From Bacilli bacterium (GTDB taxonomy: Bacteria > Bacillota_I > Bacilli_A > RFN20 > CAG-826), in NCBI GenBank assembly GCA_036657515.1, contig JAVXGI010000001.1:3821-67820 (forward strand): DNA of 64,000 nt, read 5' to 3'. The notes below the pieces were generated by a model. That model made no database searches and had not been told where the DNA came from. It was given only the letters and a program-made list of their open reading frames with translations. Both the position numbers and the translations under genes were made by a program. How positions within the stretch are numbered: position 1 is the stretch's first letter; each line of letters starts with the position of its first letter. Shown here in pieces: positions 4,527-41,087 of the stretch.

Positions 4527-4735
4527 ATTGTTTCTCCTTTAAAATAAAAAAACGCCTACTATAAGGACGTTCTTAACGCGGTACCACCTTATTTTATTTA
4601 CTAGTGTAAATACTCTTAATAAGCTTATTAACGCTAAGCACGGTTAAGTATTGAACTGAGATTTAAACATTAATGTTTGTTTTCATCAGCCACAAACTTT
4701 CTATTTTTTATTAATATTTAATTATTGTTCTTAAC
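4527..4735 (-). promoter_or_regulatory. T-box leader (tRNA-sensing attenuator) of leuS
   Basis: Plus-strand cgcggtaccacc at 4577-4588 is the reverse complement of the conserved T-box core GGTGGTACCGCG. On the minus strand it is followed by a stem (AACGTCC..GGCGTT) plus a T7 run and then the RBS AAAGGAGAA before the leuS ATG. The candidate Leu specifier CUC-A is plus gag at 4658-4660. Confidence 0.8.
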
Positions 4736-4741
4736 GTTATT

Positions 4742-4770
4742 ATTATAGTAATAAATTAGCATATTTTCAA
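4742..4770 (-). promoter_or_regulatory. sigma-70 type promoter driving the T-box leader and leuS
   Basis: Minus strand reads TTGAAA (4765-4770), a 17 nt spacer, then TATAAT (4742-4747). Confidence 0.6.
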
Positions 4771-4821
4771 CAAAAACGGTGCATTAATCAAAATAACTTT
4801 TTCATCCTTTCATCTTTAGCT

Positions 4822-4860
4822 TTCAAAAAGAAAACTACTAATCAAAATTAGTAGTTTTCT
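4822..4860 (-). terminator. rho-independent terminator after the SMC-like gene
   Basis: Perfect stem gaaaactacta / tagtagttttc (4830-4859) with an 8 nt loop. On the minus strand it is followed by CTTTTTG, 11 nt past the stop at 4871. Confidence 0.7.
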
Positions 4861-4870
4861 AGTAGTTATT

Positions 4871-7800
4871 TTAGTCTTCTTTTGCGTAAAGTCTAATTGA
4901 AGATGAAGATTTTCCATGTAAAACAACAAGCGTTTCATCAACTGATTCACTAATATCTCCAATTTTTTCACTTGGCGCACTAATAATTGCTTGTAAACCA
5001 AACTTACGTAAAAGTTTAATAGATTCTTTAATACGATTACGGTCCATTTTACTAAATGCTTCATCAAAGACAATTAAACGAATCGTATTTCCTAATTCGC
5101 TTGTCTCATTAACGTGATAAAGTTGGGCAAATGATGCAAGAACTGCAATATAGAATGGAGTTTGTGTTTCTCCACCAGACTTCTTTTTAATCATTTTACT
5201 TAAACGTTGACTAATGCCTTCTTTATTAGTGACAAGTAAATCAAAATCTAAATAAGTGCGATAATCTGTAAATACATCAATATTTAATAAAGTATCATTT
5301 GATTGTTTACCATCATTTACAATGATTGACTTAAAAAGATCGGCCATAACATCACTATATTTGTTAATGAATTCATCTTGCTTTTCAGTTGTTTGAAGTA
5401 ATAAATCATCTTTAAACATATCGTAATATCTTCTATAAGTAGGATTAGGTTTAACAGTAAATTTATATGTATCATTGCCAAATGTAGAGTTGCTTAATGC
5501 TATGTTCAAATCAGAAATTTGATCTTCTACATTTTCAATTTGATTTCTCAATTTAGAAATAAACTCATTTTTAAATTGTTCAGTTGCTTTGTTATAAGAA
5601 TCACGTATTTTTTCACGATATAACGGTAATTTTACATCACGAATATCGATTAATTCATGATCAAATTCATCATTATTTTCACCTTCAATATTATATGATA
5701 AGTGATAATCATCAGTATAAGATTTACGTAATTTACGTACTTGACCTAATATATTACTCGAAATATATTGAATACGTCCGATTGTCACAGAGTATTCTTT
5801 GTGAATTTCAAGTAAACTCTTTGTTTCAAGTTCAAGACGGAATTTTGGTAAACCAAATTCCGAAACAAATTTGGCATCATAATTTGTTTGAAGTAATTTT
5901 TCTTTTTCAGAAAGCATAGCACTTTCATTTTTAATTTTATCTTCAGTAAGATTTTTAATTGATTCAATAATTGAACCTTTTTCAACACGAAGATTATTTG
6001 TTTCTTTATCAATATCAGTTAAATCTTCTTCAACTGAAACTATACGTTTATCAAGCGAATCAATTTGTAAAGTATCATGTTTTGAAAGTTCTTCTTCAAC
6101 GTATTTTAAAGATTCTTTTAATCCTTTTAATTCAAGTATTTTCGTAGCAGAACCTATTATTGAATTTATTTCATTGGTATTAATTGTTTCTAATTGATTA
6201 GCAGAATTAATTACTTTAAACAAATCTTTAAAAGTTGATATAGACATAATATTTGTAGCAATTTCTTCTTTCTTTTGAGAAATTTGTTCACTACTAATTT
6301 TACGTCCAATATAAGAGGTTGCATATTGTTGTGGTCTTATCGTTGAAAGAGCAAAATTTCTATAAATATCACAGCTTGCTGTGATACCATTTCCCGATTC
6401 TCTTGCTTCACTAATATTATCGCATTTAGTTAATCTACCAAGTAAGAAATTAGCATAAGCACGTGCTCCAGCATGATCTGTAATTATTTCTTCTGCTAAA
6501 CTATATTCTTGAAATCCAAAACGTTTTTCAACAATCTTTTCTTGATCAACTAAAGAGATCCCATAATAACGATACTTATATAATAAGTTTTTCAAAATTT
6601 TATAAGCTTCTTCATAGTATTTTGGTTCAACAAATAAGTTGAATTTTTGATTAAACAAGAAACCTTCGATTGCATTTGACCATTTTTTATCATTAATATC
6701 AATTAAATCAGCAAAAAATTCAACTGAAATTTCTCTACCAAATTGAATCTTTAATTGAGAACTAAGTTCATTTTTAATAGAAGTAAGTGATGAATCATAA
6801 GATTTAATTCCTTTTCCAAGTGAATCTAAATCCACTTTTAAATGGGAAGTTGTAATTTCAAGATCTCGAATGGTTCGTGCAAACGAAACAGAAAGAGCGG
6901 AAATTTCGCTTTTAAAAGTTGAAAGAGCTTCTCTCCAACCTGTTAATAATTCAGAATTTATTGTTCTTAACCCACCTTTAGTAGCTTCTAAAAGTTCCAT
7001 AGATTTAGATCTAACTGCTTCAATTTGTGTTTGAAGTTCAACTATTTCACGGACTTTTTCGCCAGGAAGTAAATCTTTGTTAACACTTTCAAAAGATCTT
7101 GAAAGAGAAGTTGCAGCAGAAATATAAAGATTTGCGTAATTCTCAATTGAAGAAATTGTATCTTTTTCGATATTTGTAAGATCAGAAATTTTTTCATGTA
7201 ACTTATCTTTTTCTTCGTAAAGTTGATTAGTTAATCTATATGTATCACTATTTGCTTTATCATTAATTAATTGAATCTTTTTATTATTTAAACGTATCTT
7301 ATTAAATTCAGCTTCGTTCAATTCAACATCAATTTCACCAAGTCTTTTCTTTAATTGTTCAAGTTGTGAAAAATAAGAAGATAAGCGATCAACAGAAATT
7401 TGATGATTAACTTTTTCAATAATATACGAACATAACTTTATGTCTTTGGTAGAATCTAAATACTTTTGATAAAGATTTTGAATTTCTTCTAAACGTATTA
7501 TTCTTTCGCCCATTAATGATGCTTCGTGTTCTAATTGTTGATATTGAGCAATATTTTCTTGCATTGCACCAATTTCAATATTCATTTGTGGATCACAAAC
7601 ATATTCAGTAATAAATGTTGTAATATCAGTTATTGGAGTAAATGAAGTAGCTTTTTTAAGCAATGAAAAATATTTGTCTTTTAAGTTTCCACATTTTCTT
7701 TTCAATAAATCTTGAAATTGTTTATTGCTATCAGTAAATTTGTATTTTTCTTTATAATTAGTTTGAAAAAACATCGATAAATCTTTAAAAGACATTGGTA

Positions 7801-8230
7801 TATTATTTGTAATAAATTCGTTCTCAGGAATTTTATCTTCTAATAAAAAGAAACGATGTTCTTCGTGTCCGTCTTCAAAAGAATCAAAAACACAGCCAAG
7901 AGTAAACGAATCATCGGCAGCATCATCATAAAATTCAAGAGCAATATAACTTGTAAATCTGCCATCTCTTAGATATTTAAATCCACCATCTTCAGTATCA
8001 CCTAATTCGCCTCTAAGATAACCTTTAAGAGTTCTATTAGATTTATCCATTGCGGCTTTATTAAAATATCGTCCACTCGTATCTCCAAGTAAAACAACCT
8101 GTAAAGCATCGATTAATGTGGATTTTCCTGAAGCATTGACACCAGTTAAAAAAACAATAGGTTTCATGTCAATTGTTTCATTCCAGAAATAGTGCCAATT
8201 AATAACTTTTATTTTAGCTAATGTTTTCAT
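4871..8230 (-). CDS. mksB: MukB/MksB/JetC-type SMC-like ATPase
   Basis: 1119 aa. N-terminal head INWHYFWNETIDM...LTGVNASGKST (Walker A). About 900 aa of Lys/Glu/Leu/Asn-rich heptad-like sequence. C-terminal head SGGETQTPFYIAVLASFAQL ... IRLIVFDEAFSKMD (signature-like motif plus Walker B). Confidence 0.75.
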   Translation of the reverse strand: MKTLAKIKVINWHYFWNETIDMKPIVFLTGVNASGKSTLIDALQVVLLGDTSGRYFNKAAMDKSNRTLKGYLRGELGDTEDGGFKYLRDGRFTSYIALEFYDDAADDSFTLGCVFDSFEDGHEEHRFFLLEDKIPENEFITNNIPMSFKDLSMFFQTNYKEKYKFTDSNKQFQDLLKRKCGNLKDKYFSLLKKATSFTPITDITTFITEYVCDPQMNIEIGAMQENIAQYQQLEHEASLMGERIIRLEEIQNLYQKYLDSTKDIKLCSYIIEKVNHQISVDRLSSYFSQLEQLKKRLGEIDVELNEAEFNKIRLNNKKIQLINDKANSDTYRLTNQLYEEKDKLHEKISDLTNIEKDTISSIENYANLYISAATSLSRSFESVNKDLLPGEKVREIVELQTQIEAVRSKSMELLEATKGGLRTINSELLTGWREALSTFKSEISALSVSFARTIRDLEITTSHLKVDLDSLGKGIKSYDSSLTSIKNELSSQLKIQFGREISVEFFADLIDINDKKWSNAIEGFLFNQKFNLFVEPKYYEEAYKILKNLLYKYRYYGISLVDQEKIVEKRFGFQEYSLAEEIITDHAGARAYANFLLGRLTKCDNISEARESGNGITASCDIYRNFALSTIRPQQYATSYIGRKISSEQISQKKEEIATNIMSISTFKDLFKVINSANQLETINTNEINSIIGSATKILELKGLKESLKYVEEELSKHDTLQIDSLDKRIVSVEEDLTDIDKETNNLRVEKGSIIESIKNLTEDKIKNESAMLSEKEKLLQTNYDAKFVSEFGLPKFRLELETKSLLEIHKEYSVTIGRIQYISSNILGQVRKLRKSYTDDYHLSYNIEGENNDEFDHELIDIRDVKLPLYREKIRDSYNKATEQFKNEFISKLRNQIENVEDQISDLNIALSNSTFGNDTYKFTVKPNPTYRRYYDMFKDDLLLQTTEKQDEFINKYSDVMADLFKSIIVNDGKQSNDTLLNIDVFTDYRTYLDFDLLVTNKEGISQRLSKMIKKKSGGETQTPFYIAVLASFAQLYHVNETSELGNTIRLIVFDEAFSKMDRNRIKESIKLLRKFGLQAIISAPSEKIGDISESVDETLVVLHGKSSSSIRLYAKED

Positions 8231-8881
8231 TTAAAAATCTCCTTCTATTTGGTTGAGATTAATATTTTTTGATTCTTGATTAATTTTATCAATTGTATCA
8301 CTCATTGCTTGAATTTTAGTACTATCAATTGCATAAACGATTGATGGCAAAATGTAAAATGTAACGTTTCCTTCGTCATACGTTCCACTAACTTTCGTAA
8401 TAAGATTGTGATTTGCTAAAAATCTTAATGATTTTCCAACTAAACGTCCAGTAATTTTCTTGTTTGGAAACGAAACTGAAAAATCTATCATCGATTTAAT
8501 AAGCATTGGGGTACTTAAATAAACTCCTTGAGAATTAGAACTGGAGTCCGATTTTTCATTTTCGTAAATAAGACGTAGAACATAAAGAATAAGAGATGTT
8601 TCACGATCAATTTTAATTCTATTATCGTTATCTTTATTAAATAAAGTAATAACACCAAGTAATGAATCTTTTTCAATTGAATAACCCATATAACTCAAAT
8701 ATTCATCAGCTACATCAAAATGTCTATCAAGAAATCTGTAATATGGGTTAATTCTAATAATCTTTTCTTTACTATCAAAAATGTCTCTTACTACAAAACT
8801 ATGTGATAATAGATGATTTATTGATAATGCAAAATCTGATTTATCACTATTATTTAGTGCTAGGTATTTTTCATCAAACAT
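8231..8881 (-). CDS. mksE: MksE/JetB-like (KITE-type) small subunit
   Basis: 216 aa. It sits immediately upstream of the SMC-like gene with a 0 nt gap. Its size and position match mukE/mksE/jetB, and no enzymatic motif is present. The assignment rests on context and general resemblance only. Confidence 0.5.
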   Translation of the reverse strand: MFDEKYLALNNSDKSDFALSINHLLSHSFVVRDIFDSKEKIIRINPYYRFLDRHFDVADEYLSYMGYSIEKDSLLGVITLFNKDNDNRIKIDRETSLILYVLRLIYENEKSDSSSNSQGVYLSTPMLIKSMIDFSVSFPNKKITGRLVGKSLRFLANHNLITKVSGTYDEGNVTFYILPSIVYAIDSTKIQAMSDTIDKINQESKNINLNQIEGDF

Positions 8882-8883
8882 AA

Positions 8884-10302
8884 CTATGCTCCTTTCCTTT
8901 TAAATATTAACTTCGGTAATATATATCCATCATTTTTAACTTTTTCTTTACTGTCGTAATTTACTATATAAAAGCAATTAGGATCATCTTTTTTAATAGT
9001 AGCTAATATGAGAAGAATAAACGCTTCATATGTTGGTAATGGTATTTCTTCAATAAGAACTTCGTCTTCTTTTCCAAACACGTTTTCCATAAACTCATAT
9101 ATTCGATCATCAGTATATGACCCACTTAATTGAGAAAGAAAATTCTCCATCATAATATCTCCAGCAAAATTTGGGTCAACTATTGATAATGGCATTTGAT
9201 CACCAATATATTTGCGTAATATCGGTAACGAAACTGATTCAGAATTTATAAAACCATTCTCATAAATCGATATGCTGTCTTGCATTGAAGACAAAATACT
9301 TCTTAAATTCTTCGTATTATGTGTATTTTTAGCAATAGATGACAAAATATTTTCTAAATTGCCTTTTACTGATTTATCAGTATTATTTAAATAAAGAATT
9401 TTATTTGCACTTGATTTTGTATAGTCTCTATGACGATGATCGATATCATCAATCATGGCATTTAAAGTGTCGAACGTATCGCAAATAAAATTAATTTTTT
9501 CAATAATGGTTTTTTCGACATCTTTTGGATTAATATCACCAGAAGAAAAAACTAAACCTTGCTTTATAAGTAGATTCTTTTTTTCACTTTCTTTAATCCA
9601 ACTGTTCAAAATATTAATAATTGGACGACGGAATCTTGTAACGCTATCAAAAGTTTTTATCGGATGATAAAGACGATCACTAACTAATTCCTTATAATTA
9701 TCAAAATAGGAATGAAGTATTTCATTTGATGTAAATATTTTATTTAATCTATTTTGATAAATTCTAATTGAATGTGAAAGGGTAATTAAATCAACACGTA
9801 ATTTTTTTGTATTTTCATATGCTCTGCATAAAACAGCATACATAAATTCATCTTTAGAAGTATCTTCTAATAATAATTCGCTATAAGTGCTATGAACTAG
9901 GGAAGAATATTCTTCATTAGATTCATTAGTAATATCGAACAATGTTTTAATCATTCTAATTGAATAGGTTGGTAAAACTATATATTCATCAAAAGATTCA
10001 GGATTAAGTTCAAGTTCAAGCCATCCGGTTTCTTCGAGATGTTTAACAATAAAAGAGGCTTTAGACGCAACACTAAAGGAAGTAAACTCACTATCGCTGT
10101 CTTCTTCATCCTCAAGACTGAAGAGTTCAATTTCGTGAATACCCTTTTCTTTAAGAAAACGAACAAACTCATCTCTTTTAACATTTAAATCATTATCATT
10201 GATCAATGTATATAAAAGAATTAAGCAGCCTGCATATATGTTTTTATTCTTTCCATTTAATATAGAGAAAAATTTTTCGGGTAGTATTTCAAATAAATTC
10301 AT
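8884..10302 (-). CDS. mksF: MksF/JetA-like (kleisin-type) subunit
   Basis: The ORF track starts at a TTG at 10314. I prefer the ATG at 10300-10302 (MNLFEILPEKFFSILNGKNKNIY), giving about 472 aa. Its size and first position match the F-E-B gene order. It lies 2 nt from the next gene. Confidence 0.5.
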   Translation of the reverse strand: MNLFEILPEKFFSILNGKNKNIYAGCLILLYTLINDNDLNVKRDEFVRFLKEKGIHEIELFSLEDEEDSDSEFTSFSVASKASFIVKHLEETGWLELELNPESFDEYIVLPTYSIRMIKTLFDITNESNEEYSSLVHSTYSELLLEDTSKDEFMYAVLCRAYENTKKLRVDLITLSHSIRIYQNRLNKIFTSNEILHSYFDNYKELVSDRLYHPIKTFDSVTRFRRPIINILNSWIKESEKKNLLIKQGLVFSSGDINPKDVEKTIIEKINFICDTFDTLNAMIDDIDHRHRDYTKSSANKILYLNNTDKSVKGNLENILSSIAKNTHNTKNLRSILSSMQDSISIYENGFINSESVSLPILRKYIGDQMPLSIVDPNFAGDIMMENFLSQLSGSYTDDRIYEFMENVFGKEDEVLIEEIPLPTYEAFILLILATIKKDDPNCFYIVNYDSKEKVKNDGYILPKLIFKRKGA

Positions 10303-10404
10303 TCTTGTTTCCAATATTAAAATTATAACAAATATATCACCCTATTCATATAATAAAATAACTCTATTTTAAATTATTTACATATACTATATAATAATAC
10401 ATAT

Positions 10405-11248: not shown

Positions 11249-11956
11249 TTAAGCAGCAAATGTAAAGATAATTTTATTAACAATTACTCTAGTATTTTTT
11301 CCAACGCCGCTTTCTAATTTGATTGTGGTTGCAGCTTTAATATCAGCGTCTTCAAATGTAAATGCTTTTGATGGTTGAGGAGCAGCATCAACAGCTGCTG
11401 CTAATTCACAAGCTTTTGAATTAACAGTTAATGCAGAAGCGGCATCAATTGACCAACTAAGCACTCCTTGCTTATCATAACTTTTGTAATATCTTGTTGC
11501 AGTTACTTCTAATTTAGCAAGTTTAACGCCATCTGCAAAAGCAAATTCTAAACTTCCAGTGTTACTTCCTGTTCCTAATTTAATTGTTGTACTTTTAAAG
11601 TTTGTATAATCGCATGTTTGTGTACCAACTTTAGTTGGTGTAACACTTTTAATTTTTGTGGTTTTAACAAAATCAGTCATAAAATCAGCTCCTGATTCAT
11701 AATTAAAGTATGATCCAACTCCTGATTCTGCTGTGATCCTTGGATTTTCAGGTTGATCAAGAACCATTTCAACCACTTCTCCTTCTACGACTGGAGTAGT
11801 TGTAGTATCTGTTGTTGTAGTTGTTGTTGTTGTGTCTGATGTAGTAGTAGTTGTTGTTGTTGTAGGATCAGTTTTATCAGTTACTGATGTACTTGGTGTT
11901 CCGCATGATGCTAAAGTAAGTAGACTTAGTCCTAAAAGAATTGTAAATTTTTTCAT
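11249..11956 (-). CDS. lipoprotein with poly-threonine linker, function unknown
   Basis: 235 aa. Signal peptide plus lipobox LLTLASC-G. Then TDPTTTTTTTTSDTTTTTTTTDTTTTP, followed by a roughly 180 aa beta-rich domain. Confidence 0.75.
   Translation of the reverse strand: MKKFTILLGLSLLTLASCGTPSTSVTDKTDPTTTTTTTTSDTTTTTTTTDTTTTPVVEGEVVEMVLDQPENPRITAESGVGSYFNYESGADFMTDFVKTTKIKSVTPTKVGTQTCDYTNFKSTTIKLGTGSNTGSLEFAFADGVKLAKLEVTATRYYKSYDKQGVLSWSIDAASALTVNSKACELAAAVDAAPQPSKAFTFEDADIKAATTIKLESGVGKNTRVIVNKIIFTFAA
11795..11863 (-). repeat. low-complexity ACN-codon (poly-Thr) tract
   Basis: Plus strand shows runs of gtt/gta/tgt triplets (gttgttgttgtt). They encode T8-SD-T8-D-T4. Confidence 0.8.
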
Positions 11957-13366: not shown

Positions 13367-14210
13367 TTTTATTCTCCATTAAATCGACATAAATATTATA
13401 CCATTCTATTGGAATAATTTCCATTTTAACATCTTTTTTTACGCTACATTCTGGTTCGTTAATATGTTTACAATCATCAAACTTACAAGAGTTTCTATAT
13501 CTTTCAATTAAAGGAAAATTTGTTCTTATATCAGAAATATTCATTTCTAAATCAAGAGATGAGAATCCCGGAGTATCAACTAAAAATGTATTATCATTAA
13601 TTGGCAGTAATATAGTTTCCTTCGTTCGATGTTTTCCACGATTTAAAAATATTGAATATTCACCAATTAATCGATTAAAAAAAGGCTCTATCATATTAAT
13701 TAGTGTAGATTTTCCTGCACCAGTTTGTCCAAAAAACAAGCTTGTTTTACCATCTAAAAGTTCTTTTATTTGGGCAATCGAGGAAGCATCATTACTTGCT
13801 GTTACAATGCATCTAATTTCAGCATTTCTAAGTTCGGCGATAAAATCATCAATTTTAGTATTCTTTTTGATGTCATTTTTAGTAAAAATGACAATCGGTT
13901 GAATTTGATTAAACTTAACATAAGTTATATATTTTAGAACTAAATATTTTGAAAACTCTGGTTCTTCAATTGAATTTACAATAAATGCTTGGTCAACGTT
14001 TGCAATACATGGACGAGTAAACTCGTTGTTTCTTTTCACAATATCAACAATTACTAAACTTTCATCATCGAACACGACATAATCTCCAACTTTAATGTTC
14101 TTTGAAGAAATTCTAAAAGAACCTCTTAAAGAGCAATTATAAAAAGCTCCGTTTTTATAAACTTTAAAATTACTAGCGATATTTGAAGTCACTCTTCCAC
14201 TTTCAATCAT
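13356..14210 (-). CDS. rsgA: ribosome small-subunit biogenesis GTPase RsgA
   Basis: Circularly permuted GTPase: TKNDI (G4) lies before GQTGAGKSTLIN (G1). C-terminal zinc knuckle CKFDDCKHINEPEC. Confidence 0.9.
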   Translation of the reverse strand: MIESGRVTSNIASNFKVYKNGAFYNCSLRGSFRISSKNIKVGDYVVFDDESLVIVDIVKRNNEFTRPCIANVDQAFIVNSIEEPEFSKYLVLKYITYVKFNQIQPIVIFTKNDIKKNTKIDDFIAELRNAEIRCIVTASNDASSIAQIKELLDGKTSLFFGQTGAGKSTLINMIEPFFNRLIGEYSIFLNRGKHRTKETILLPINDNTFLVDTPGFSSLDLEMNISDIRTNFPLIERYRNSCKFDDCKHINEPECSVKKDVKMEIIPIEWYNIYVDLMENKNEH

Positions 14211-15094
14211 TTTCCTTTTAATCCTAACAAACGTTCAAACCAATTTTGGCTACGTAACATTTTTTTATTTTTAAGCATTTCATTAATATCAAGTCTCATC
14301 TCAGCAGCGGTATTATAACGTTTCTTTGGATCTTTTTCTGTTGCTTTTTTAATTACTTCTTCAATAGCAACGGGAATATTTGCTCGAAAACTTGAAAGTA
14401 AAGGCATTGATTTATGAATTTGCATTTGGCAAATTTCATGAGGATCTTTTGAATTAAATGGAACATTTCCGGCAATTAATTCAAAAAAAGTAATTCCTAA
14501 AGCATAGATATCTTGTTGAAAACTAGGTTTACCTGAAACAATAACAGCTGGATCAAGATATTGTGGAGTTCCAACAATTTTCTTTTTTTCGCTGATAGCG
14601 TTTTTTTCATTTAAGAAAAGAGAAATACCAAAATCTGCAACCTTTACGATATTATTTGATAATAAATAAATATTTTGCGGCTTAATATCTCGATGGACAA
14701 TCCCACGTAAATGTAATTCTTCTAAAGCATCAAGAACTTGAACAACGACTGAACAAGCTTCTTCATAACCTAGCGTTCTTCTACCATAAAGTACGTCACT
14801 TAATGTTTGACCATTAATATATTCCGTAATCATATATGGAGAATTTTCAAATTTTCCAAAATCAAGAATTTTTACGATATTAAAATGATTTTGAACAGAA
14901 GCAGCAATTCTAATTTCATATTTAAATCTTTGATACATTTCTTCCGATTTGTTTTTATCTTCACGAACAATTTTAATTGCAACATCATTTTTATCAATAC
15001 TATCAAAAGCTTTATATACATCAGCCATCCCACCTCGTCCGATATAACGTTCAAGGCGATAACGACCATTAAATAATGTACCAATCTCAATCAT
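14207..15094 (-). CDS. prkC: Hanks-type Ser/Thr protein kinase, kinase domain only
   Basis: The start was moved to the internal ATG (MIEIGTLFNGRYRLERYIGRGGMADVYKA), which overlaps the prpC stop by 8 nt. Contains HRDIKPQN, DFG and GTPQYLDP. No TM segment or PASTA repeats after the kinase domain. Confidence 0.88.
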   Translation of the reverse strand: MIEIGTLFNGRYRLERYIGRGGMADVYKAFDSIDKNDVAIKIVREDKNKSEEMYQRFKYEIRIAASVQNHFNIVKILDFGKFENSPYMITEYINGQTLSDVLYGRRTLGYEEACSVVVQVLDALEELHLRGIVHRDIKPQNIYLLSNNIVKVADFGISLFLNEKNAISEKKKIVGTPQYLDPAVIVSGKPSFQQDIYALGITFFELIAGNVPFNSKDPHEICQMQIHKSMPLLSSFRANIPVAIEEVIKKATEKDPKKRYNTAAEMRLDINEMLKNKKMLRSQNWFERLLGLKGK

Positions 15095-15833
15095 CTTTGC
15101 TCTCCCGCAAAACAGTCGCGATATTATCGCTTCCGCCATTGGAATTAGCAAAAGCAATCAAAGATTCGCATTTTATATCGACCGCTTCATTACTTTTTAA
15201 AACACTTAATATGTCGTTTTCTTCGAGATTTTTATATAATCCATCTGAACAAAGTAAAATATTCTGACCTTTATTTTTAAATGTTTTAAAAGATAATGAA
15301 ACGGTTGGAAAAATTCCAATGGCGTTAGTTAAAACGTGACGTTTTGGATGAGTTTCCATTTCTTCTTTCGTAATACTTCCGTTTTTATATAGATAATCAA
15401 CATAGGTTTGGTCTTCACTAACTTGTTCCATTTTATTTTTCGAATAAAAATAGCATCTACTATCTCCAGCATAACCAACGATTATAGAATCATTTACTAA
15501 AAGAGCAAGAATACAAGTTGTTCCCATATCTTTATAGTCTTGGTCTTGGGCATTTTTAAATATCTCACGATTAGCTTTTTTTGCCACCGACATAATCCAT
15601 TGAATAGCGGTATAGTTCGTAAAAAAATGAGTTTTATTTAAAAATGCGTCCTTAAAATGTTCGATCACAACGCGTGATGCGAAATCTCCCTTTTTATATC
15701 CACCCATCCCATCGCAGACAATTAACAAGACATCGCCATTCGAGTTAATAAGAGCAGTAGCATTATCCTCGTTTGAAACTCTTATCTTGCCAAGGTCAAG
15801 TCGATAGGCATACTCGCCTATTCTTTTTTTCAT
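15087..15833 (-). CDS. prpC: PP2C-family Ser/Thr phosphatase
   Basis: VSNEDN, CDGMGGYKKG, LLCSDGLY and GGSDNIAT motifs, located upstream of prkC. Confidence 0.9.
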   Translation of the reverse strand: MKKRIGEYAYRLDLGKIRVSNEDNATALINSNGDVLLIVCDGMGGYKKGDFASRVVIEHFKDAFLNKTHFFTNYTAIQWIMSVAKKANREIFKNAQDQDYKDMGTTCILALLVNDSIIVGYAGDSRCYFYSKNKMEQVSEDQTYVDYLYKNGSITKEEMETHPKRHVLTNAIGIFPTVSLSFKTFKNKGQNILLCSDGLYKNLEENDILSVLKSNEAVDIKCESLIAFANSNGGSDNIATVLRESKDD

Positions 15834-36200: not shown

Positions 36201-36236
36201 AAAGAAGCTCAAGCACTAAATTGCTTGAGCTTCTTT
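36201..36236. terminator. bidirectional terminator between convergent genes
   Basis: 15 bp perfect arms aaagaagctcaagca / tgcttgagcttcttt with a 6 nt loop. The TAG stop of the minus-strand 378 aa gene lies in the loop. Confidence 0.8.
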
Positions 36237-37352
36237 TATATTTACAAATTTTTTCTCGTCTTCGTGCATCTTTACAATTTGACCATAATAAATTTTTCGT
36301 AAATTAAAGAAATGATTTGCTTCATCACTATCAATATTTGAAATGTATAAAATTGAAAATTCTTTCTCAATTCTAAAAAAAGCTTCATAAAGTAAAGAAA
36401 GTGTTAAATGGAAAAAAGTTTCATCATTAGAATAGATCATTAAAGGTGAACTATGAGCTATTTCGCTGCTTAATTCATAAAGTTTTGAATAAGACGATAG
36501 TCCAGCAAGTTTTTCAACACCATCTCTAAAATTGTATTTAAAAGTTGGATCTTCTTTAACACCAGGTATTTCAACTAAATAACCATATTCTATATATTTT
36601 TTGATATCTTTAGATTTCAAATTAAGTTTTTTCATTTCTTCTTTTAGTATTAAAAATATAGCATCTCCTTCTTCTTCAGGGATTGCCCTTCTAAAGGCTA
36701 AACTATAATTGATGTGTTTAAGATAAGCACTAATTAATGGAGCTCCATATTTACTTAATAAAAGTAAAATACATTCAGTTTCATGAAGCGTTCTCCATGT
36801 TGAAAAGGCTTCAGATTCGAATCCATCTTCTAATAAATTTAAAGAACATCTCATAATTCTAATTGCCTTTGCTAATACGTCTGCAATTAAAGTGCTATTA
36901 GGATCTTTTTGACTATATTTTTCCATTATTTTAGACATAAAATTAATATAAAGTCTTAATGTTGATATCTTAGGATTATAACGTGAGATATATATTTTAT
37001 TATTTAATGCTATTTTTTCATTTGTTAAATATTTGTCTAAACTTATCGATAAAATGAGCGATAAAATACTTTCGTCTTCCCAATGAAATTGTAATTGCTC
37101 TAAAGAATCCTCATATGTTTGATAAATAAATTCACTGCACATGTATAAAAATAGTTGAAATGGATTAATTGATTCTGCAAAAGCATCGGCTTCTTGGGTT
37201 GTTGTGCCAAGATTGTGTAAATTACTACTTTCTATTGAATTAATCAACGTATTAAACATATCAAAAAAACGTTTTTCATCATATCTTTCGGGTATTCCTA
37301 GAGAAATGAAAAAATTATGAAATGTTTCTTCAGTAAAGTTATTTATTTTCAT
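36216..37352 (-). CDS. hypothetical all-helical protein, last gene of the addBA transcription unit
   Basis: 378 aa with no TM and no motif I recognise. AGAGG RBS. The start overlaps the upstream ORF by 14 nt. Confidence 0.6.
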   Translation of the reverse strand: MKINNFTEETFHNFFISLGIPERYDEKRFFDMFNTLINSIESSNLHNLGTTTQEADAFAESINPFQLFLYMCSEFIYQTYEDSLEQLQFHWEDESILSLILSISLDKYLTNEKIALNNKIYISRYNPKISTLRLYINFMSKIMEKYSQKDPNSTLIADVLAKAIRIMRCSLNLLEDGFESEAFSTWRTLHETECILLLLSKYGAPLISAYLKHINYSLAFRRAIPEEEGDAIFLILKEEMKKLNLKSKDIKKYIEYGYLVEIPGVKEDPTFKYNFRDGVEKLAGLSSYSKLYELSSEIAHSSPLMIYSNDETFFHLTLSLLYEAFFRIEKEFSILYISNIDSDEANHFFNLRKIYYGQIVKMHEDEKKFVNIKEAQAI

Positions 37353-37995
37353 ATATTGCCTCTATAATAATATCATTTTTTTGAGCAAAATTATATATGT
37401 CGATAAATAATTCTTCTGGTATTTTTTTAACAAGATAAATTTTTGATATTATAGGCGCAAAAAATAAATTATTAATTAAATTTGATGTATCAAGGACAAA
37501 ACAAAGATCTTGCTCATTACCAATTAAACATAGTTTTATAAGATCAAGCGTTTCTCCAGGAAGTTTATCATAATTTATGTTTAAATCTATCTCGTTGTGC
37601 ATATAATAACAATTTGCAACTAATAATTTATAACCTGCTTCATCAATTTTACTAAAGTCGTATTCTACATAAAACGGGACGTCTCCATCGACATCAATTT
37701 TTGTTTTAAAAATAGCTCTTCTATAGTTAGATAATTCAGCAATTACATTATGTGCGCCATCCGCTTTTAAGATTAAATTATTATAATTTACTGGTTCAAA
37801 TTCAATGGTATTATCTAACATGTGTTCTAAGAAATCGTAATGAATTCTACCTTCGTTATCACATGTGAAAAATACATTTCCTTCACGAAGAAGTTTTCTA
37901 TTCATCCAGTCTTTTTTATTTAAGACAGCTTCATAAATTTCTTTGTTGTTTTGTGAGAATAATTTCTCAATGTTTTCAATATCGTTTTTAATCAT
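37339..37995 (-). CDS. hypothetical protein translationally coupled to addA
   Basis: 218 aa with no recognisable motif. Its ATG overlaps the addA TGA (ATGA). Confidence 0.6.
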   Translation of the reverse strand: MIKNDIENIEKLFSQNNKEIYEAVLNKKDWMNRKLLREGNVFFTCDNEGRIHYDFLEHMLDNTIEFEPVNYNNLILKADGAHNVIAELSNYRRAIFKTKIDVDGDVPFYVEYDFSKIDEAGYKLLVANCYYMHNEIDLNINYDKLPGETLDLIKLCLIGNEQDLCFVLDTSNLINNLFFAPIISKIYLVKKIPEELFIDIYNFAQKNDIIIEAIYENK

Positions 37996-40900
37996 ATAAC
38001 TTCCTTTGCAATTCCATCAATTGCTGAAATAAGATAGGTTCTGCAGTCTTTTTTAAAAAATTTGAATACATAATCTTTATAAATATGCAATTGTTTTTCA
38101 TAAGCTTTATCGCTAATATCTTTTAGCTTATAATCTATTATATCAATATGATTTTGATACTCAATAATTAAGTCTATAAAACCATGAATTTCGTTATCAT
38201 TAAATTCATACTCCTTAAATATTTTTGCATCATTTAAATTGTCAAATAACGGATTTTTAAGTACATTGTCAACTATTTTTCTCTTTGTTAAATCTTTTAT
38301 AAATGCCGTATTTTTTGTTTTAAAATCTGTTATTTCTAAAAGATTATGAATTTCCGTTCCTAGTTCAAGAACTGAAGCAATCTCTTCATCATTAATAACA
38401 TCTTTTGATGCTTTTTTGCTTATTTTATTAATTGGAAATTCATAATCAAAATTATTAACTTTTGTATCATTTAAATCTTCATTAAACATCTCAACTGTTA
38501 ATTCATCATCAAGAATCTTTTCGCTGCTTCCACAAACGTTGTCAATAATGTAGGAACCGCAATAGTCTTCTGAAAGAAAATTACCGTAACAAGTAGAACA
38601 TAATTTATCAAAAACTAAACTTTCACATTTGCTTGTAACAACTACTTCATCGATTGCCCTAGTTAACGTCACATAAAATAATCTAAGTTCTTCTTGAACG
38701 TTTGCTTCCTTTTCTTTCATCAACATAAAAGCTTTTAGAAACGAAAATGGTTGAGAAGATACTTCACTATTTAGTAATGGAATTTGAATACCAAATTCTT
38801 TTGAACAAACTATCTTTTCGCTAGGAGTTTTATTTCTAAATGTATTCTTGACGAATGGAAGATATACTTTTTTAAACTCTAATCCTTTTGATTTATGAAT
38901 TGACATTAGTTTTACGGTATCTTTAATATCTTCTTTAAAATCATATTCAATTTTCGAATCACTTGAAGTCAAATTATCAAGAAAAGATATAATATCACTT
39001 AACGAATTTCCTTTATTGGCATAATCAACAATAATATTATAAATATTTTCTAACTGATCTAAATTTGCTTGTACGTTATCAATTGAATAAATCATTTCAA
39101 TTAAGTTAAAGTCAGAAATTAATCTTGAAAGTAGAAAAGAAATATCATCATTAAAGTTATCTTTCTTTATCTGTTTAAGTTTCGTAAATATTAAGTCCTT
39201 TTTAAAATCATTCTCATTAGACGATGTTAAAATATCATATATCTTTTGATCGCTATATTGCACAGCGTAAGATCTTGCCACTGATGTGAAAAATTTTCTT
39301 ATTAGTTTTGGATTATATTCACTAGAAATTTCAGTACTATAGTATAGATGCAATAAGGAAATAATCAGTACAAATGAAGGGACTTGTTTTGGCGAAACTC
39401 CATCTAACACGCTGAGAGGAATGTGGAAATAAAGGAATATACGCCTAAAACTGTCGAAATGCAATTTAGATCTTGATAAAATTGCAAAATCAGAAAATTT
39501 AATGTCTCTAAATTTGTTTTCTCCTTCAATTTTTGAATCGTAAACTTGTTCTTTACTATTTATTCTTGTAAGTATATCTCTAGCAATAAATTCAATCTCT
39601 TTTGTTCTTTCACTTTTAGAATATTTGCAGACATAATTGTCCATATTGGAGTAATTTTTTAAGATAATACCATATTTGCATTTGCTATTCTTATTGCTAT
39701 TTAGCTCATCGTTACCAGATAAAATTTTATGCGACACTTTATAATCTGCTCCGCCACATTCAATTGACATAACATTGCTAAATAATTCGTTTATTGTCGA
39801 AATTACTTCTACTCTACTTCTAAAATTTGTGTTTAAACAAAGTGCACTTCCACCGATTTTATTACTATATTTTTCAAACTTATCAGAAAATAATTTGCAG
39901 TTTGCGCTTCTAAAACGATAAATAGATTGTTTGATATCACCAACCATAAATATGTTGTTATTTCCTATTTCGTTTAAAAATTCTTCTTGAGAATCGCTTG
40001 TATCTTGATATTCATCAACCAAAATAAAATCTATGGTTTCTTTTAAATACGAATTAACTTCTTTATTACGTACAATGTTTAACGCAAACGACGCAACATC
40101 TTTAAATGTAAATGAATTCATTGTTTCTTTTTTAAAATCTAGTTTTTCTTTAATTTTTTTACAAATATTGAAAAGTTCGGTAATAAGATGTTTGTTCTTT
40201 ATCATTAAGTCAAATTGATCCCTTGTAAAAATATTTTTTGTAATACTTTTTCCAATTGTTTCAAATTGCTTTTTATAAGTAGCTACTATCGTCTTAGATT
40301 CGTCATCTATTTTGAACTTTGCCATTCGAGATGAGGTAAATTTATAATTTTCCAACTTTTCAATAAACATATCATTTGATTTTTCGCTTAATAAAGAGTC
40401 TAGATTTTCAGATTCAGCATTCGCATAATCAACATTTGTGATTTTATTTAACAATGAAATTTCTAATTTTGAAAGTTTTGCTTTATTATTTGAAATAAAT
40501 TCATTATATAATTTACTCAAGTTTTCAAAAGTTAAGAATTTATCAACTTTTTCATTATAAAAATCGTTCCAATTTTCAATATCTTGTAAGAATTTGAAGA
40601 GAACTAATACCATTTCTTTAATATTTCTTTCATCTCGAAAAGCATAGTTATAAATAAGTTCGCTTTGAGAATAAATTGCACTATTATTCAAAAATTCCTC
40701 ATTAATTATATCATTAATAAATTGTTCCTCAATTTTAGGCTCAAGTATTGTTAAATTTTGAGTATGCATTGATAATTTTGAATATTTTTTGGCTAGAAAC
40801 AAATAATACGAATCAAATGTTTCTATATGTGAACTGTTTAATGCAGGAACAAGATGAAAAAGTTCTAGATCTTTACTAATTTTTCCAAGAATTCTTTGTT

Positions 40901-41087
40901 TCATTTCAAATGCAGCTGCCTCTGTAAAAGTTAAAACTAATAGTCTACTTGGGTGGACTCCTGATTTGATTAATCGATAAACTTTTTCGGTTAAAACAGC
41001 AGTTTTACCCGAACCAGCCCCGGCAGACAAGATAACGTTTTCTTTATAATTTTTAAGAGCTAACTCTTGCTCGTAAGTAAATTTCAT
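37992..41087 (-). CDS. addA: AddA/RexA-type helicase-nuclease subunit
   Basis: Start moved to the ATG at 41085-41087 (MKFTYEQELAL) behind GAGGGGG. Contains GAGSGKT, LVDEYQDTS and the UvrD-type motif VKLMSIHKSKGLEF. C-terminal nuclease HGFIDLII...IDIIDYK. Confidence 0.88.
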   Translation of the reverse strand: MKFTYEQELALKNYKENVILSAGAGSGKTAVLTEKVYRLIKSGVHPSRLLVLTFTEAAAFEMKQRILGKISKDLELFHLVPALNSSHIETFDSYYLFLAKKYSKLSMHTQNLTILEPKIEEQFINDIINEEFLNNSAIYSQSELIYNYAFRDERNIKEMVLVLFKFLQDIENWNDFYNEKVDKFLTFENLSKLYNEFISNNKAKLSKLEISLLNKITNVDYANAESENLDSLLSEKSNDMFIEKLENYKFTSSRMAKFKIDDESKTIVATYKKQFETIGKSITKNIFTRDQFDLMIKNKHLITELFNICKKIKEKLDFKKETMNSFTFKDVASFALNIVRNKEVNSYLKETIDFILVDEYQDTSDSQEEFLNEIGNNNIFMVGDIKQSIYRFRSANCKLFSDKFEKYSNKIGGSALCLNTNFRSRVEVISTINELFSNVMSIECGGADYKVSHKILSGNDELNSNKNSKCKYGIILKNYSNMDNYVCKYSKSERTKEIEFIARDILTRINSKEQVYDSKIEGENKFRDIKFSDFAILSRSKLHFDSFRRIFLYFHIPLSVLDGVSPKQVPSFVLIISLLHLYYSTEISSEYNPKLIRKFFTSVARSYAVQYSDQKIYDILTSSNENDFKKDLIFTKLKQIKKDNFNDDISFLLSRLISDFNLIEMIYSIDNVQANLDQLENIYNIIVDYANKGNSLSDIISFLDNLTSSDSKIEYDFKEDIKDTVKLMSIHKSKGLEFKKVYLPFVKNTFRNKTPSEKIVCSKEFGIQIPLLNSEVSSQPFSFLKAFMLMKEKEANVQEELRLFYVTLTRAIDEVVVTSKCESLVFDKLCSTCYGNFLSEDYCGSYIIDNVCGSSEKILDDELTVEMFNEDLNDTKVNNFDYEFPINKISKKASKDVINDEEIASVLELGTEIHNLLEITDFKTKNTAFIKDLTKRKIVDNVLKNPLFDNLNDAKIFKEYEFNDNEIHGFIDLIIEYQNHIDIIDYKLKDISDKAYEKQLHIYKDYVFKFFKKDCRTYLISAIDGIAKEVI

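Follow-up and report, generated by a model that had tools for sequence, protein, structure and literature searches.

The window, the 64-kb stretch of DNA analysed here, stems from a small bacterium of the gut that is probably wall-less, and carries a type I Wadjet operon, jetABC, whose nuclease subunit JetD appears to have been lost long ago, and we lean towards reading its product as a domesticated, MksBEF-like chromosomal SMC complex. According to the current view, the chromosome-folding complexes MukBEF and MksBEF descend from Wadjet systems that cut plasmids and then lost the nuclease; to our knowledge, the known MukBEF and MksBEF examples are too diverged for this transition to be retraced. 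The nuclease-free JetABC described here is ordinary type I Wadjet in sequence, yet it is a core-like chromosomal gene set across a deep clade of reduced genomes, and both JetD-bearing relatives and JetABC-minus sister lineages are at hand for comparison.

The operon and its flanking elements

The genes jetA, jetB and jetC are tightly packed on the minus strand and, according to the ORF list and profile searches, form a full-length type I Wadjet set. The genes and the elements around them are as follows.

10315-10404, minus strand: putative promoter region of 90 nt, common to jetA and a divergent membrane-protein gene
8884-10302, minus strand: jetA, kleisin, MksF/MukF-like, 472 aa from the ATG at 10302
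8231-8881, minus strand: jetB, KITE, MksE/MukE-like, 216 aa, beginning 2 nt past the jetA stop
4871-8230, minus strand: jetC, SMC-type ATPase, MksB/MukB-like, 1119 aa, with a 0-nt gap to the jetB stop
4829-4860, minus strand: intrinsic terminator of jetABC (14-bp stem, 4-nt loop, T-run), 10 nt past the jetC stop
4770-4742, minus strand: promoter TTGAAA-17-TATAAT, between the jetC terminator and the T-box leader
4560-4741, minus strand: candidate T-box leader (68.7 bits, E = 8e-15, under the Rfam gathering score of 93), then leuS

The ORF coordinates reproduce the three ORFs, their sizes and the 2-nt and 0-nt gaps given in an earlier note made from the sequence alone. The jetA reading frame (8884-10314, minus strand) includes an in-frame TTG at 10314, upstream of the ATG, that would yield 476 aa; the ATG at 10302 agrees with the clade consensus start MNLFDI… and with public gene calls. 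The three genes constitute one operon with its own terminator, and one terminator-like site was found 3' of jetC versus 0.1 expected. The same note had described the DNA 3' of the SMC gene as filled by a terminator, a promoter and a leuS T-box leader, and placed a divergent small membrane protein upstream; both descriptions hold, with the T-box scoring below the gathering threshold and the membrane protein measuring 148 aa. On the promoter side, an extended -10-like element, TGTTATAAT, lies at 10330-10322 on the minus strand within the shared 90-nt region, and the jetABC promoter is assigned to this region tentatively, because a consensus scan gave plus-strand candidates only. The divergent 148-aa protein shows a sub-threshold match to DUF6560, and it was rejected as a JetABC partner since two genomes without JetABC, L089 and L092, have it too.

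The window also encodes a PASTA-less PrkC. Published predictions for the RFN20 families CAG-826 and CAG-288 fit a wall-less type (PMC10868615), and the earlier guess of a wall-less-type genome is consistent with these predictions and with the form of PrkC in the window.

Family assignment

All three products fall into type I Wadjet families. JetA matches the PADLOC JetA1 profile over its full length (E = 3.5e-120) and the Pfam JetA family (PF18982, DUF5716) over 434 of 434 profile positions (E = 8e-86). JetB matches PADLOC JetB1 (E = 2.1e-59) and Pfam DUF4194 (PF13835; E = 7e-13, 49 bits versus a cutoff of 32.7), a family also matched by all 47 JetB proteins tested from the clade and its relatives, and shows a weak MksE match (E = 0.02). 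These HMM assignments make the two small ORFs members of the kleisin and KITE families that the earlier note had been unable to recognize by motif. Searches of PDB sequences and profiles with JetA and JetB returned no match, and a single-sequence structure model of JetB reached a pLDDT of 37 and was unusable.

JetC matches PADLOC JetC1 with 1102 bits over residues 1-1118, and its closest solved structures are the JetC proteins of E. coli GF4-3 and P. aeruginosa (8as8, 8dk2). The match to the Pfam MukB N-terminal profile is weak (E = 2e-4), that to SMC_N is below the cutoff of that profile (E = 0.007), and the remaining Pfam matches are to a generic Walker B domain (PF13558) and a P-loop (PF13555). 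The motifs of a split ABC head quoted earlier are present, INWHYFWNE…GVNASGKST in the N-terminal part and SGGETQTPFYIAV…LIVFDEAFSKMD in the C-terminal part. The ~900 aa between the head halves had been described as heptad-like; the spacing is correct, but the segment is not all coiled coil, as residues ~480-640 form a conserved hinge-like block. A repair ATPase of the SbcC, RecN or RecF type, which had been named as the alternative assignment, was ruled out by the full-length JetC1 match, and the partners are JetA and JetB rather than SbcD/Mre11. The profile matches likewise bear out the gene order kleisin, KITE, SMC. By sequence, JetABC is a complete kleisin-KITE-SMC set, its ABC-ATPase and hinge being intact.

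Absence of JetD across the clade

In a tblastn search with five JetD proteins, the best match anywhere in the window and 85 loci (1.6 Mb) had E = 0.24, in line with the earlier claim that neither JetD/MksG nor a jetD remnant lies beside the SMC module. No JetD was found within ±10 kb of jetABC in ~73 related species-level genomes whose JetC proteins are 48-96% identical, where the genes 3' of jetC are glgC/glgD/glgA or leuS according to Pfam. An exhaustive pattern scan for JetD in 185k species genomes returned no assembly of the JetD-less clade among the 80 listed of 155 JetD relatives, and the JetD protein matches are Clostridia-type and located inside complete jetABCD operons. Direct inspection of genome content covered ~20 kb in each genome and the single 64-kb window.

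Several candidates for a missing nuclease were rejected. The ~377-aa ORF 3' of jetC in relatives is GlgC (NTP_transferase, E = 5e-69), the ORFs of ~290-326 aa at the JetD position in ~12 relatives encode an assortment of membrane proteins (DUF3137, an HGSNAT-like acyltransferase, others of no family), and the AT-rich JetD matches that might have represented a trans-encoded JetD belong to complete jetABCD operons whose JetC is 37% identical to that of the window.

Collectively, JetD is absent from the operon neighbourhoods of the clade, and among the 80 loci listed by the scan no JetD of the related subfamily was detected in trans. A simple recent loss, which an adjacent jetD in close relatives would have indicated, finds no counterpart in the neighbourhoods: none of ~73 clade loci carries the gene, and the nearest JetD-bearing operons are Clostridial, with JetC proteins 37-41% identical to that of the window. 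Since jetABC occupies one fixed site across a deep clade, co-diverges with its neighbours and has JetD-bearing relatives of only ~37-41% identity, the loss of JetD is, on this comparative evidence, not recent and dates from long ago. In sequence the window operon is an unremarkable type I JetABC, and with ~40% JetC identity it probably stands much nearer to JetD-bearing operons than Pseudomonas MksBEF or MukBEF would.

Fixed site, vertical descent and constraint

In uncultured small Bacilli of the CAG-826/Onthovivens type, the order across the clade is rpmB, jetABC and glgCDA…leuS, with rpmB 180-900 nt upstream of jetABC in 59 loci, glgCD downstream in 60 and leuS next in 41. Pairwise JetC distances follow those of the neighbouring housekeeping genes (r = 0.84; mean p-distance 0.434 for JetC and 0.447 for housekeeping), and each of six groups defined by housekeeping genes has 50/50 bootstrap support in the JetC tree. 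As judged from gene order and co-divergence, jetABC is a fixed, vertically inherited chromosomal locus of a deep clade, situated between rpmB and glgC/leuS and not in a defence island.

The genes are full-length in ~70 species at 48-60% identity. The dN/dS values are 0.030 for jetA (measured against locus L001), 0.039 for jetB and 0.055 for jetC, compared with 0.041 for leuS and 0.028 for rlmN, and across 67 clade sequences the Walker A, signature (KKSGGETQ), Walker B (FDEAF) and D-loop motifs of JetC show conservation of 90% or more. By these estimates, purifying selection on jetABC is as strong as on its housekeeping neighbours. At least two sublineages have cleanly lost jetABC, with no pseudogene fragments at the empty sites, and therefore its role is not essential; in a small independent sample, jetABC was present in only one of seven informative clade genomes. 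Two chromosome arrangements occur, rpmB|asp23 and rpmB|jetABC|glgC. JetABC-positive assemblies include JAKVOO010000001.1 (1.48 Mb), JBMNLN010000001.1 (1.33 Mb), JBMNLM010000001.1, CASDYC010000001.1 and MAGs of the species of the window (GCA_036656875.1, GCA_036662375.1, GCA_036660515.1 and GCA_036635675.1), while JBMNFL010000001.1, JAQUUH01, DAOPYW01 and JBAYBO01 are relatives without the operon.

The smc slot in related lineages

In seven related lineages, represented by assemblies none of which was shown to be JetABC-positive, rnc is directly followed by ftsY without smc, and the 23 rnc-ftsY loci of these lineages (299 kb) hold no Smc-, ScpA- or ScpB-like sequence. By comparison, 28 AT-rich control loci among the matches listed have rnc immediately 5' of smc. 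Neither smc nor scpAB was found in the window or in the ±10 kb flanking it, a scan for the smc Walker A codon pattern gave no clade assembly among the 120 matches listed, and Rnc is too divergent for Smc-bearing MAGs to be assigned.

These observations invite a bolder proposal, which we regard as doubtful: that a wall-less Bacilli lineage lost Smc-ScpAB outright and recruited a type I JetABC that had shed its nuclease as its only SMC-type chromosome organiser, thereby repeating, far more recently and with a complex that is still Wadjet-like, the replacement of Smc by MukBEF. Were this true, the JetD-bearing cousins (~40% identity) and the sister lineages without any SMC complex would provide natural controls. 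If these genomes lack Smc-ScpAB, the clade amounts to a natural experiment on what changes, and what can stay as it is, when an SMC motor of immunity turns into a condensin; if they do have Smc-ScpAB, jetABC is one more accessory MksBEF-like system, mainly of use for annotation.

Possible functions of the nuclease-less complex

The inheritance of JetABC in the manner of a housekeeping gene suggests that its present role is most likely in chromosome organisation. As in the solved JetABC and MukBEF structures, JetA and JetB would bridge two JetC dimers into a dimer-of-dimers, and this complex would be expected to bind DNA by loading and to drive ATP-dependent loop extrusion. Stalled motors would find no nuclease to call in, which leaves DNA folding or holding as their sole output. 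On a chromosome of ~1-1.5 Mb, JetABC could act as a condensin similar to MksBEF or MukBEF, aiding compaction and segregation, and may also make up for Smc, the gene for which is absent from its usual place between rnc and ftsY in related lineages. Such a function would be beneficial yet dispensable, because some sublineages have deleted the operon. Chromosome-folding activity is undocumented for any type I JetABC (PMC10586767).

The earlier note had left two readings open, a condensin and a defence module with a remote or unknown effector; the evidence favours the former without settling the matter. JetABC could still serve in anti-plasmid defence if it recognises small circular DNA through loop extrusion and passes it to an effector encoded elsewhere, be it a very divergent JetD or an unrelated nuclease. 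This is unlikely, although the proteins are typical of type I Wadjet by HMM and the genome content inspected directly comprises the ~20 kb per genome and the single window. The JetB N-terminal peptide MFEEEF also speaks for it, as it resembles that of JetD-bearing relatives, is almost invariant in the clade without JetD, and occupies the same JetB position as the JetD-docking 'IFDR' motif of type I systems (PMC10586767; bioRxiv 10.1101/2025.03.10.642339); a partner could still dock there. On the other hand, a JetD of the related subfamily appears neither in a clade assembly (80 listed of 155) nor among the protein matches, what some relatives encode at the JetD position is a mixture of membrane proteins with no conserved partner among them, and the unassigned ORFs of the window have no defence-type matches. 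Moreover, no defence island surrounds the locus, and vertical inheritance at housekeeping rates is atypical of defence genes.

Immunity or episome control might also operate independently of a nuclease, with JetABC fully extruding small circles and locking in a 'holding state' that hinders their replication, transcription or segregation without cutting, by analogy with episome silencing by Smc5/6. On plasmid DNA, JetABC alone was shown to enter a stable holding state once extrusion is over (bioRxiv 10.1101/2023.11.03.565488; PMC7617805), the ATPase and hinge are kept intact, and dispensability is as expected of an accessory function. However, plasmid restriction needs JetD/MksG in the systems studied (PMC10586767; PMC10123090), and the long vertical retention of jetABC at a single site points to a steady benefit directed at the host, which makes such a mechanism quite improbable here. 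A decaying, functionless Wadjet remnant would be in keeping with the absence of JetD and the deletion of jetABC in some lineages, but the very low probability we assign to it reflects full-length ORFs in all the ~70 species, dN/dS ratios of 0.03-0.055, conserved catalytic motifs and empty sites free of pseudogene fragments; the conservation data effectively refute it. A chromosomal, MksBEF-like role therefore remains the reading we favour.

Comparison with known systems

The operon shares its order (jetA-jetB-jetC), its families (JetA1/JetB1/JetC1) and its protein lengths with the type I Wadjet JetABCD systems of E. coli GF4-3 and P. aeruginosa PA14, MksBEFG of C. glutamicum and EptABCD of M. 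smegmatis. Unlike these, it is without JetD (aCAP plus Toprim nuclease, PF09983/PF11795), lies outside defence islands and is vertically inherited, and defence-finder tools should not count such nuclease-less jetABC loci as active Wadjet. As a chromosomal kleisin-KITE-SMC operon without mksG/jetD, it resembles the nuclease-less Wadjet-group complexes, namely P. aeruginosa MksBEF, mycobacterial MksB and the 'FEB' operons. One clade member, JAFLUZ010000005.1 (locus L005), is itself listed as 'FEB' in Data S1 of Bürmann et al. 2025 (PMC7617805), as are Anaeroplasma bactoclasticum and several 'Tenericutes' MAGs. Because nuclease-less Wadjet-group operons have already been catalogued (PMC7617805), the novelty of the window operon is lower; the clade-wide fixation of a nuclease-less jetABC at one site, together with the empty smc slot in relatives, has no description in the literature searched.

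With Smc-ScpAB, JetABC shares the SMC-kleisin-KITE architecture and, presumably, loop extrusion, but it belongs to another family, and the Smc-ScpAB genes do not form one operon beside rpmB, the canonical smc lying between rnc and ftsY. A further related system is MukBEF of gamma-proteobacteria, a vertically inherited chromosomal condensin that, along with 'several other Wadjet group members', is without MksG (PMC7617805) and was proposed to descend from a Wadjet-like ancestor (PMC10586767; PMC7617805). MukBEF, however, replaced Smc-ScpAB and is near-essential, whereas jetABC, at most a conjectural replacement, is dispensable in some sublineages of the clade.

Identity and layout of the operon

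By their profile matches, the three proteins are unambiguously assigned to type I Wadjet: JetA matches PADLOC JetA1 (E = 3.5e-120) and Pfam JetA (E = 8e-86), JetB matches PADLOC JetB1 (E = 2.1e-59) and Pfam DUF4194 (E = 7e-13), and JetC matches PADLOC JetC1 over residues 1-1118 (1102 bits). The DUF4194 match recurs in 47/47 JetB homologues tested, a few of which also match MksE. Among solved structures, the large protein is closest to JetC of E. coli GF4-3 and of P. aeruginosa. An SbcC-type identity of this protein was rejected, the SbcC-type Pfam matches being confined to generic Walker B and P-loop pieces. A single-sequence structure model of JetB was unusable (pLDDT 37). The SMC module of JetABC type proposed in an earlier note from the sequence alone is real and was correctly read; the profiles assign JetA, JetB and JetC. 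The operon and its downstream flank are laid out as follows:

8884-10314, minus strand: jetA ORF, 476 aa with a TTG start or 472 aa with an ATG start at 10302
8231-8881, minus strand: jetB ORF, 216 aa
4871-8230, minus strand: jetC ORF, 1119 aa
4829-4860, minus strand: hairpin (14-bp stem) and T-run downstream of jetC
4770-4742, minus strand: sigma-70-like promoter downstream of jetC, 11/12 match
4560-4741, minus strand: T-box leader upstream of leuS, 68.7 bits, E = 8e-15

For jetA, the ATG at 10302 agrees with public gene calls and with the clade consensus N-terminus MNLF…. ORF calling bore out the co-directional minus-strand arrangement with spacings of 2 nt and 0 nt, and the Walker A and signature/Walker B strings quoted in the note are found in the large protein. 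The approximately 900 aa described between the two head halves do contain heptad-like coil, but a conserved hinge-like block at ~480-640 means that they are not coil throughout. The terminator, promoter and leuS T-box leader reported downstream were all located, within 4860-4560; the leader falls below the Rfam gathering score of 93, so that a default scan misses it, and is followed on the minus strand by leuS. Upstream of jetA, the small membrane protein gene is divergent, as described, and encodes 148 aa.

Absence of JetD

The lack of jetD at the locus was also borne out: tblastn found none in the window or adjoining jetABC in close relatives, with a best E of 0.24 outside Clostridial operons for five JetD queries against the window and 85 loci (1.6 Mb). 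A protein search with JetD returned Clostridia-type proteins only, and an exhaustive JetD-alignment scan of the genome collection (181 candidates, 155 relatives) placed no JetD-less clade assembly among the best 80 of the 155 relatives, down to 31% identity. The AT-rich JetD matches belong to jetABCD operons that are complete, of which one is part of a defence island, and their JetC is 37% identical to that of the window. No defence or nuclease match was found among the window's unassigned ORFs. On this sequence evidence JetD is absent, and its loss is not recent. In one AT-rich gut-metagenome jetABCD operon (L167:2636-3998, L168), jetA lies in two ORFs of 158 and 303 aa, through a frameshift or as a genuine split kleisin, with jetB, jetC and jetD intact.

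In ~60 clade loci, jetC is followed by glgC-glgD-glgA (glgC by Pfam NTP_transferase, E = 5e-69), with leuS ~4 kb further on; the window and three relatives (L001, L002, L051) have lost the glg genes, so that leuS comes directly after jetC. This glg loss belongs to the window's subclade (window 4527-4870 versus L003-L077, ~60 relatives with glg), and starch/maltodextrin genes (GH77, amylases, sugar ABC transporter) are still present in the window at ~46-60 kb. About a dozen loci carry a membrane protein of varied type between jetC and glgC. Those of 290-326 aa in this 'JetD position' (L005:13421-14335, L004:5956-6936; also L008, L015, L025, L049, L059, L060) were rejected as a conserved fourth subunit, being heterogeneous: some are DUF3137 proteins, a single one resembles HGSNAT-type acyltransferases, and the rest match no family.

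Vertical inheritance and constraint

A JetC scan with one genome per species gathered 78 loci, comprising 5 from Clostridia (JetC ~40% identical to the window's) and 73 from uncultured small Bacilli (48-60%); the JetC of the close relative L001 is 96% identical. The clade is labelled 'Coprobacillus sp. CAG:826', Candidatus Onthovivens, Candidatus Alectryobacillus or 'Bacillales UBA…', with many mislabelled bins; the window itself belongs to MAGs that carry the label 'Bacilli bacterium', GCA_036656875.1 among them. In 59 loci the distance from rpmB to the downstream jetA is 180-900 nt; where the flank is long enough, rpe, prkC, prpC, rlmN, rsmB and priA are found beyond rpmB. JetC pairwise distances follow those of RlmN+PrpC+PrkC+Rpe (r = 0.84) with equal mean p-distances (0.434 versus 0.447 for housekeeping), and all six groups of the housekeeping tree were recovered in JetC bootstrap trees (50/50 each). 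For the pair of window and L001, dN/dS is 0.030 for jetA, 0.039 for jetB and 0.055 for jetC, compared with 0.041 for leuS, 0.028 for rlmN and 0.033 for prkC. Conservation of the Walker A, signature, Walker B and D-loop motifs is at least 90% across 67 JetD-less JetCs, and the motifs are identical to those of JetD-bearing relatives. The jetABC locus behaves as a core chromosomal gene.

Elsewhere in the window, a Thr-rich putative lipoprotein with T and D runs (11249-11956, minus strand) is 74% identical to its L001 orthologue among genes that are 89-100% identical, and looks like a fast-evolving surface protein. The stretch 36216-43531 (minus strand) encodes an AddA/AddB-like helicase-nuclease pair (UvrD-like, 1040 aa, and PD-(D/E)XK, 814 aa) and, after it, a 218-aa protein without family match and a 378-aa DUF5677 protein.

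Patchy presence and history

A second, independent clade sample drawn through RlmN (at least 600 candidates, 7 informative genomes) added one operon-bearing genome, L090; this share of 1/7 in a small sample stands against at least 74 species found through JetC. Of the others, L088, L094 and L095 have an empty site (rpmB directly before glgC), L089 lacks the operon between rpmB-mem148 and leuS, and L092 and L093 have other content there. The empty sites are clean gaps of 180-650 nt (L088:15110-15767, L094:7714-8069, L095:9621-10076, L089:15570-15749) exactly where relatives carry the 5.4-kb operon, with no detectable jet remnants. In NJ trees on 543-1051 columns, the genomes without the operon nest within the JetABC-bearing clade (93/100 bootstrap replicates) in two distinct groups (supported at 98% and 89%; jointly monophyletic in 1/100), and the outgroup L096 also lacks it. 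In the simplest scenario, the operon was acquired once, long ago, at this site, with JetD lost by then, and was afterwards inherited vertically and cleanly lost at least twice.

Smc in the wider group

No smc, scpA or scpB was found in the window or within 10 kb on either side of it. L093, which falls within the JetABC-bearing clade by RlmN+Rpe (91/100 bootstraps), keeps the Bacillus-type order rpmB, then asp23-dak-recG-plsX-rnc, and its ftsY begins 9 nt past rnc with no smc between (L093:16740-18434). Six more lineages, reached with the FtsY of L093 and with a profile built on related FtsY sequences (L370, L374, L377, L380, L388, L389), all read rnc-ftsY-ylxM-ffh with smc missing from the slot, and 23 loci (299 kb) of these related lineages held no Smc-, ScpA- or ScpB-like sequence. 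As a control, 28 AT-rich genomes were sampled by an Smc Walker-A codon pattern: rnc lies immediately upstream of smc in these, including Metamycoplasmataceae and many uncultured Bacilli/Tenericutes, the latter with a short Smc of ~985 aa. In the wider group, as read in these seven related lineages, which may or may not carry JetABC, smc is gone from the canonical rnc-ftsY slot; it may lie elsewhere in the genome. Clade members without the operon speak against JetABC as an indispensable sole condensin, unless these small genomes can manage with no condensin at all. The significance would be high only if whole genomes showed Smc-ScpAB to be absent from JetABC-bearing members.

The RFN20 families CAG-826 and CAG-288 are predicted to be peptidoglycan-less and non-sporulating (PMC10868615). 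Consistent with such a cell, the PrkC homologue (14207-15157, minus strand) consists of a kinase domain only, without PASTA repeats (295-316 aa). Window ORFs are intact under table 11, in agreement with TGA as a stop codon in RFN20 (PMC7301438).

Relation to known systems

According to Bürmann et al. 2025 (PMC7617805), MksG is missing from MukBEF 'and several other Wadjet group members'. The nuclease-less category is known because Data S1 of that study documents many 'FEB' operons, including those of Anaeroplasma bactoclasticum and 'Tenericutes' MAGs, and the lineage is already in the published table, JAFLUZ010000005.1 (clade member L005) being listed as 'FEB'. In the searched literature there was no description of clade-wide fixation at one site, core-gene co-divergence, repeated clean losses or relatives with an empty smc slot.

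JetABC, an SMC motor built as a dimer of dimers, extrudes DNA; when the DNA is a small circle, both motors stall, and JetD then docks, partly via an N-terminal 'IFDR' motif of JetB and the JetC heads, and cuts (PMC10586767; bioRxiv 10.1101/2023.11.03.565488; PMC7617805). MFEEEF, residues 1-6 of the window's JetB (8864-8881), is almost invariant in ~70 JetD-less JetBs and resembles the N-terminal peptides of JetD-bearing relatives (MWYEEYEKL, MIEELYGNL); it is retained without JetD, although an N-terminal JetB motif docks JetD in type I Wadjet. In one rival reading, JetABC serves defence with an effector that is encoded remotely or is of an unidentified type. In another, JetABC, which by itself attains a DNA 'holding state' (PMC10586767; bioRxiv 10.1101/2023.11.03.565488; PMC7617805), controls episomes without a nuclease. 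P. aeruginosa MksBEF and MukBEF, which are nuclease-less, organise chromosomes (PMC10586767; bioRxiv 10.1101/2023.11.03.565488; PMC7617805). With JetD gone and the motor intact and under housekeeping-level constraint, jetABC here would most plausibly encode an MksBEF-like loop extruder acting on the host chromosome.
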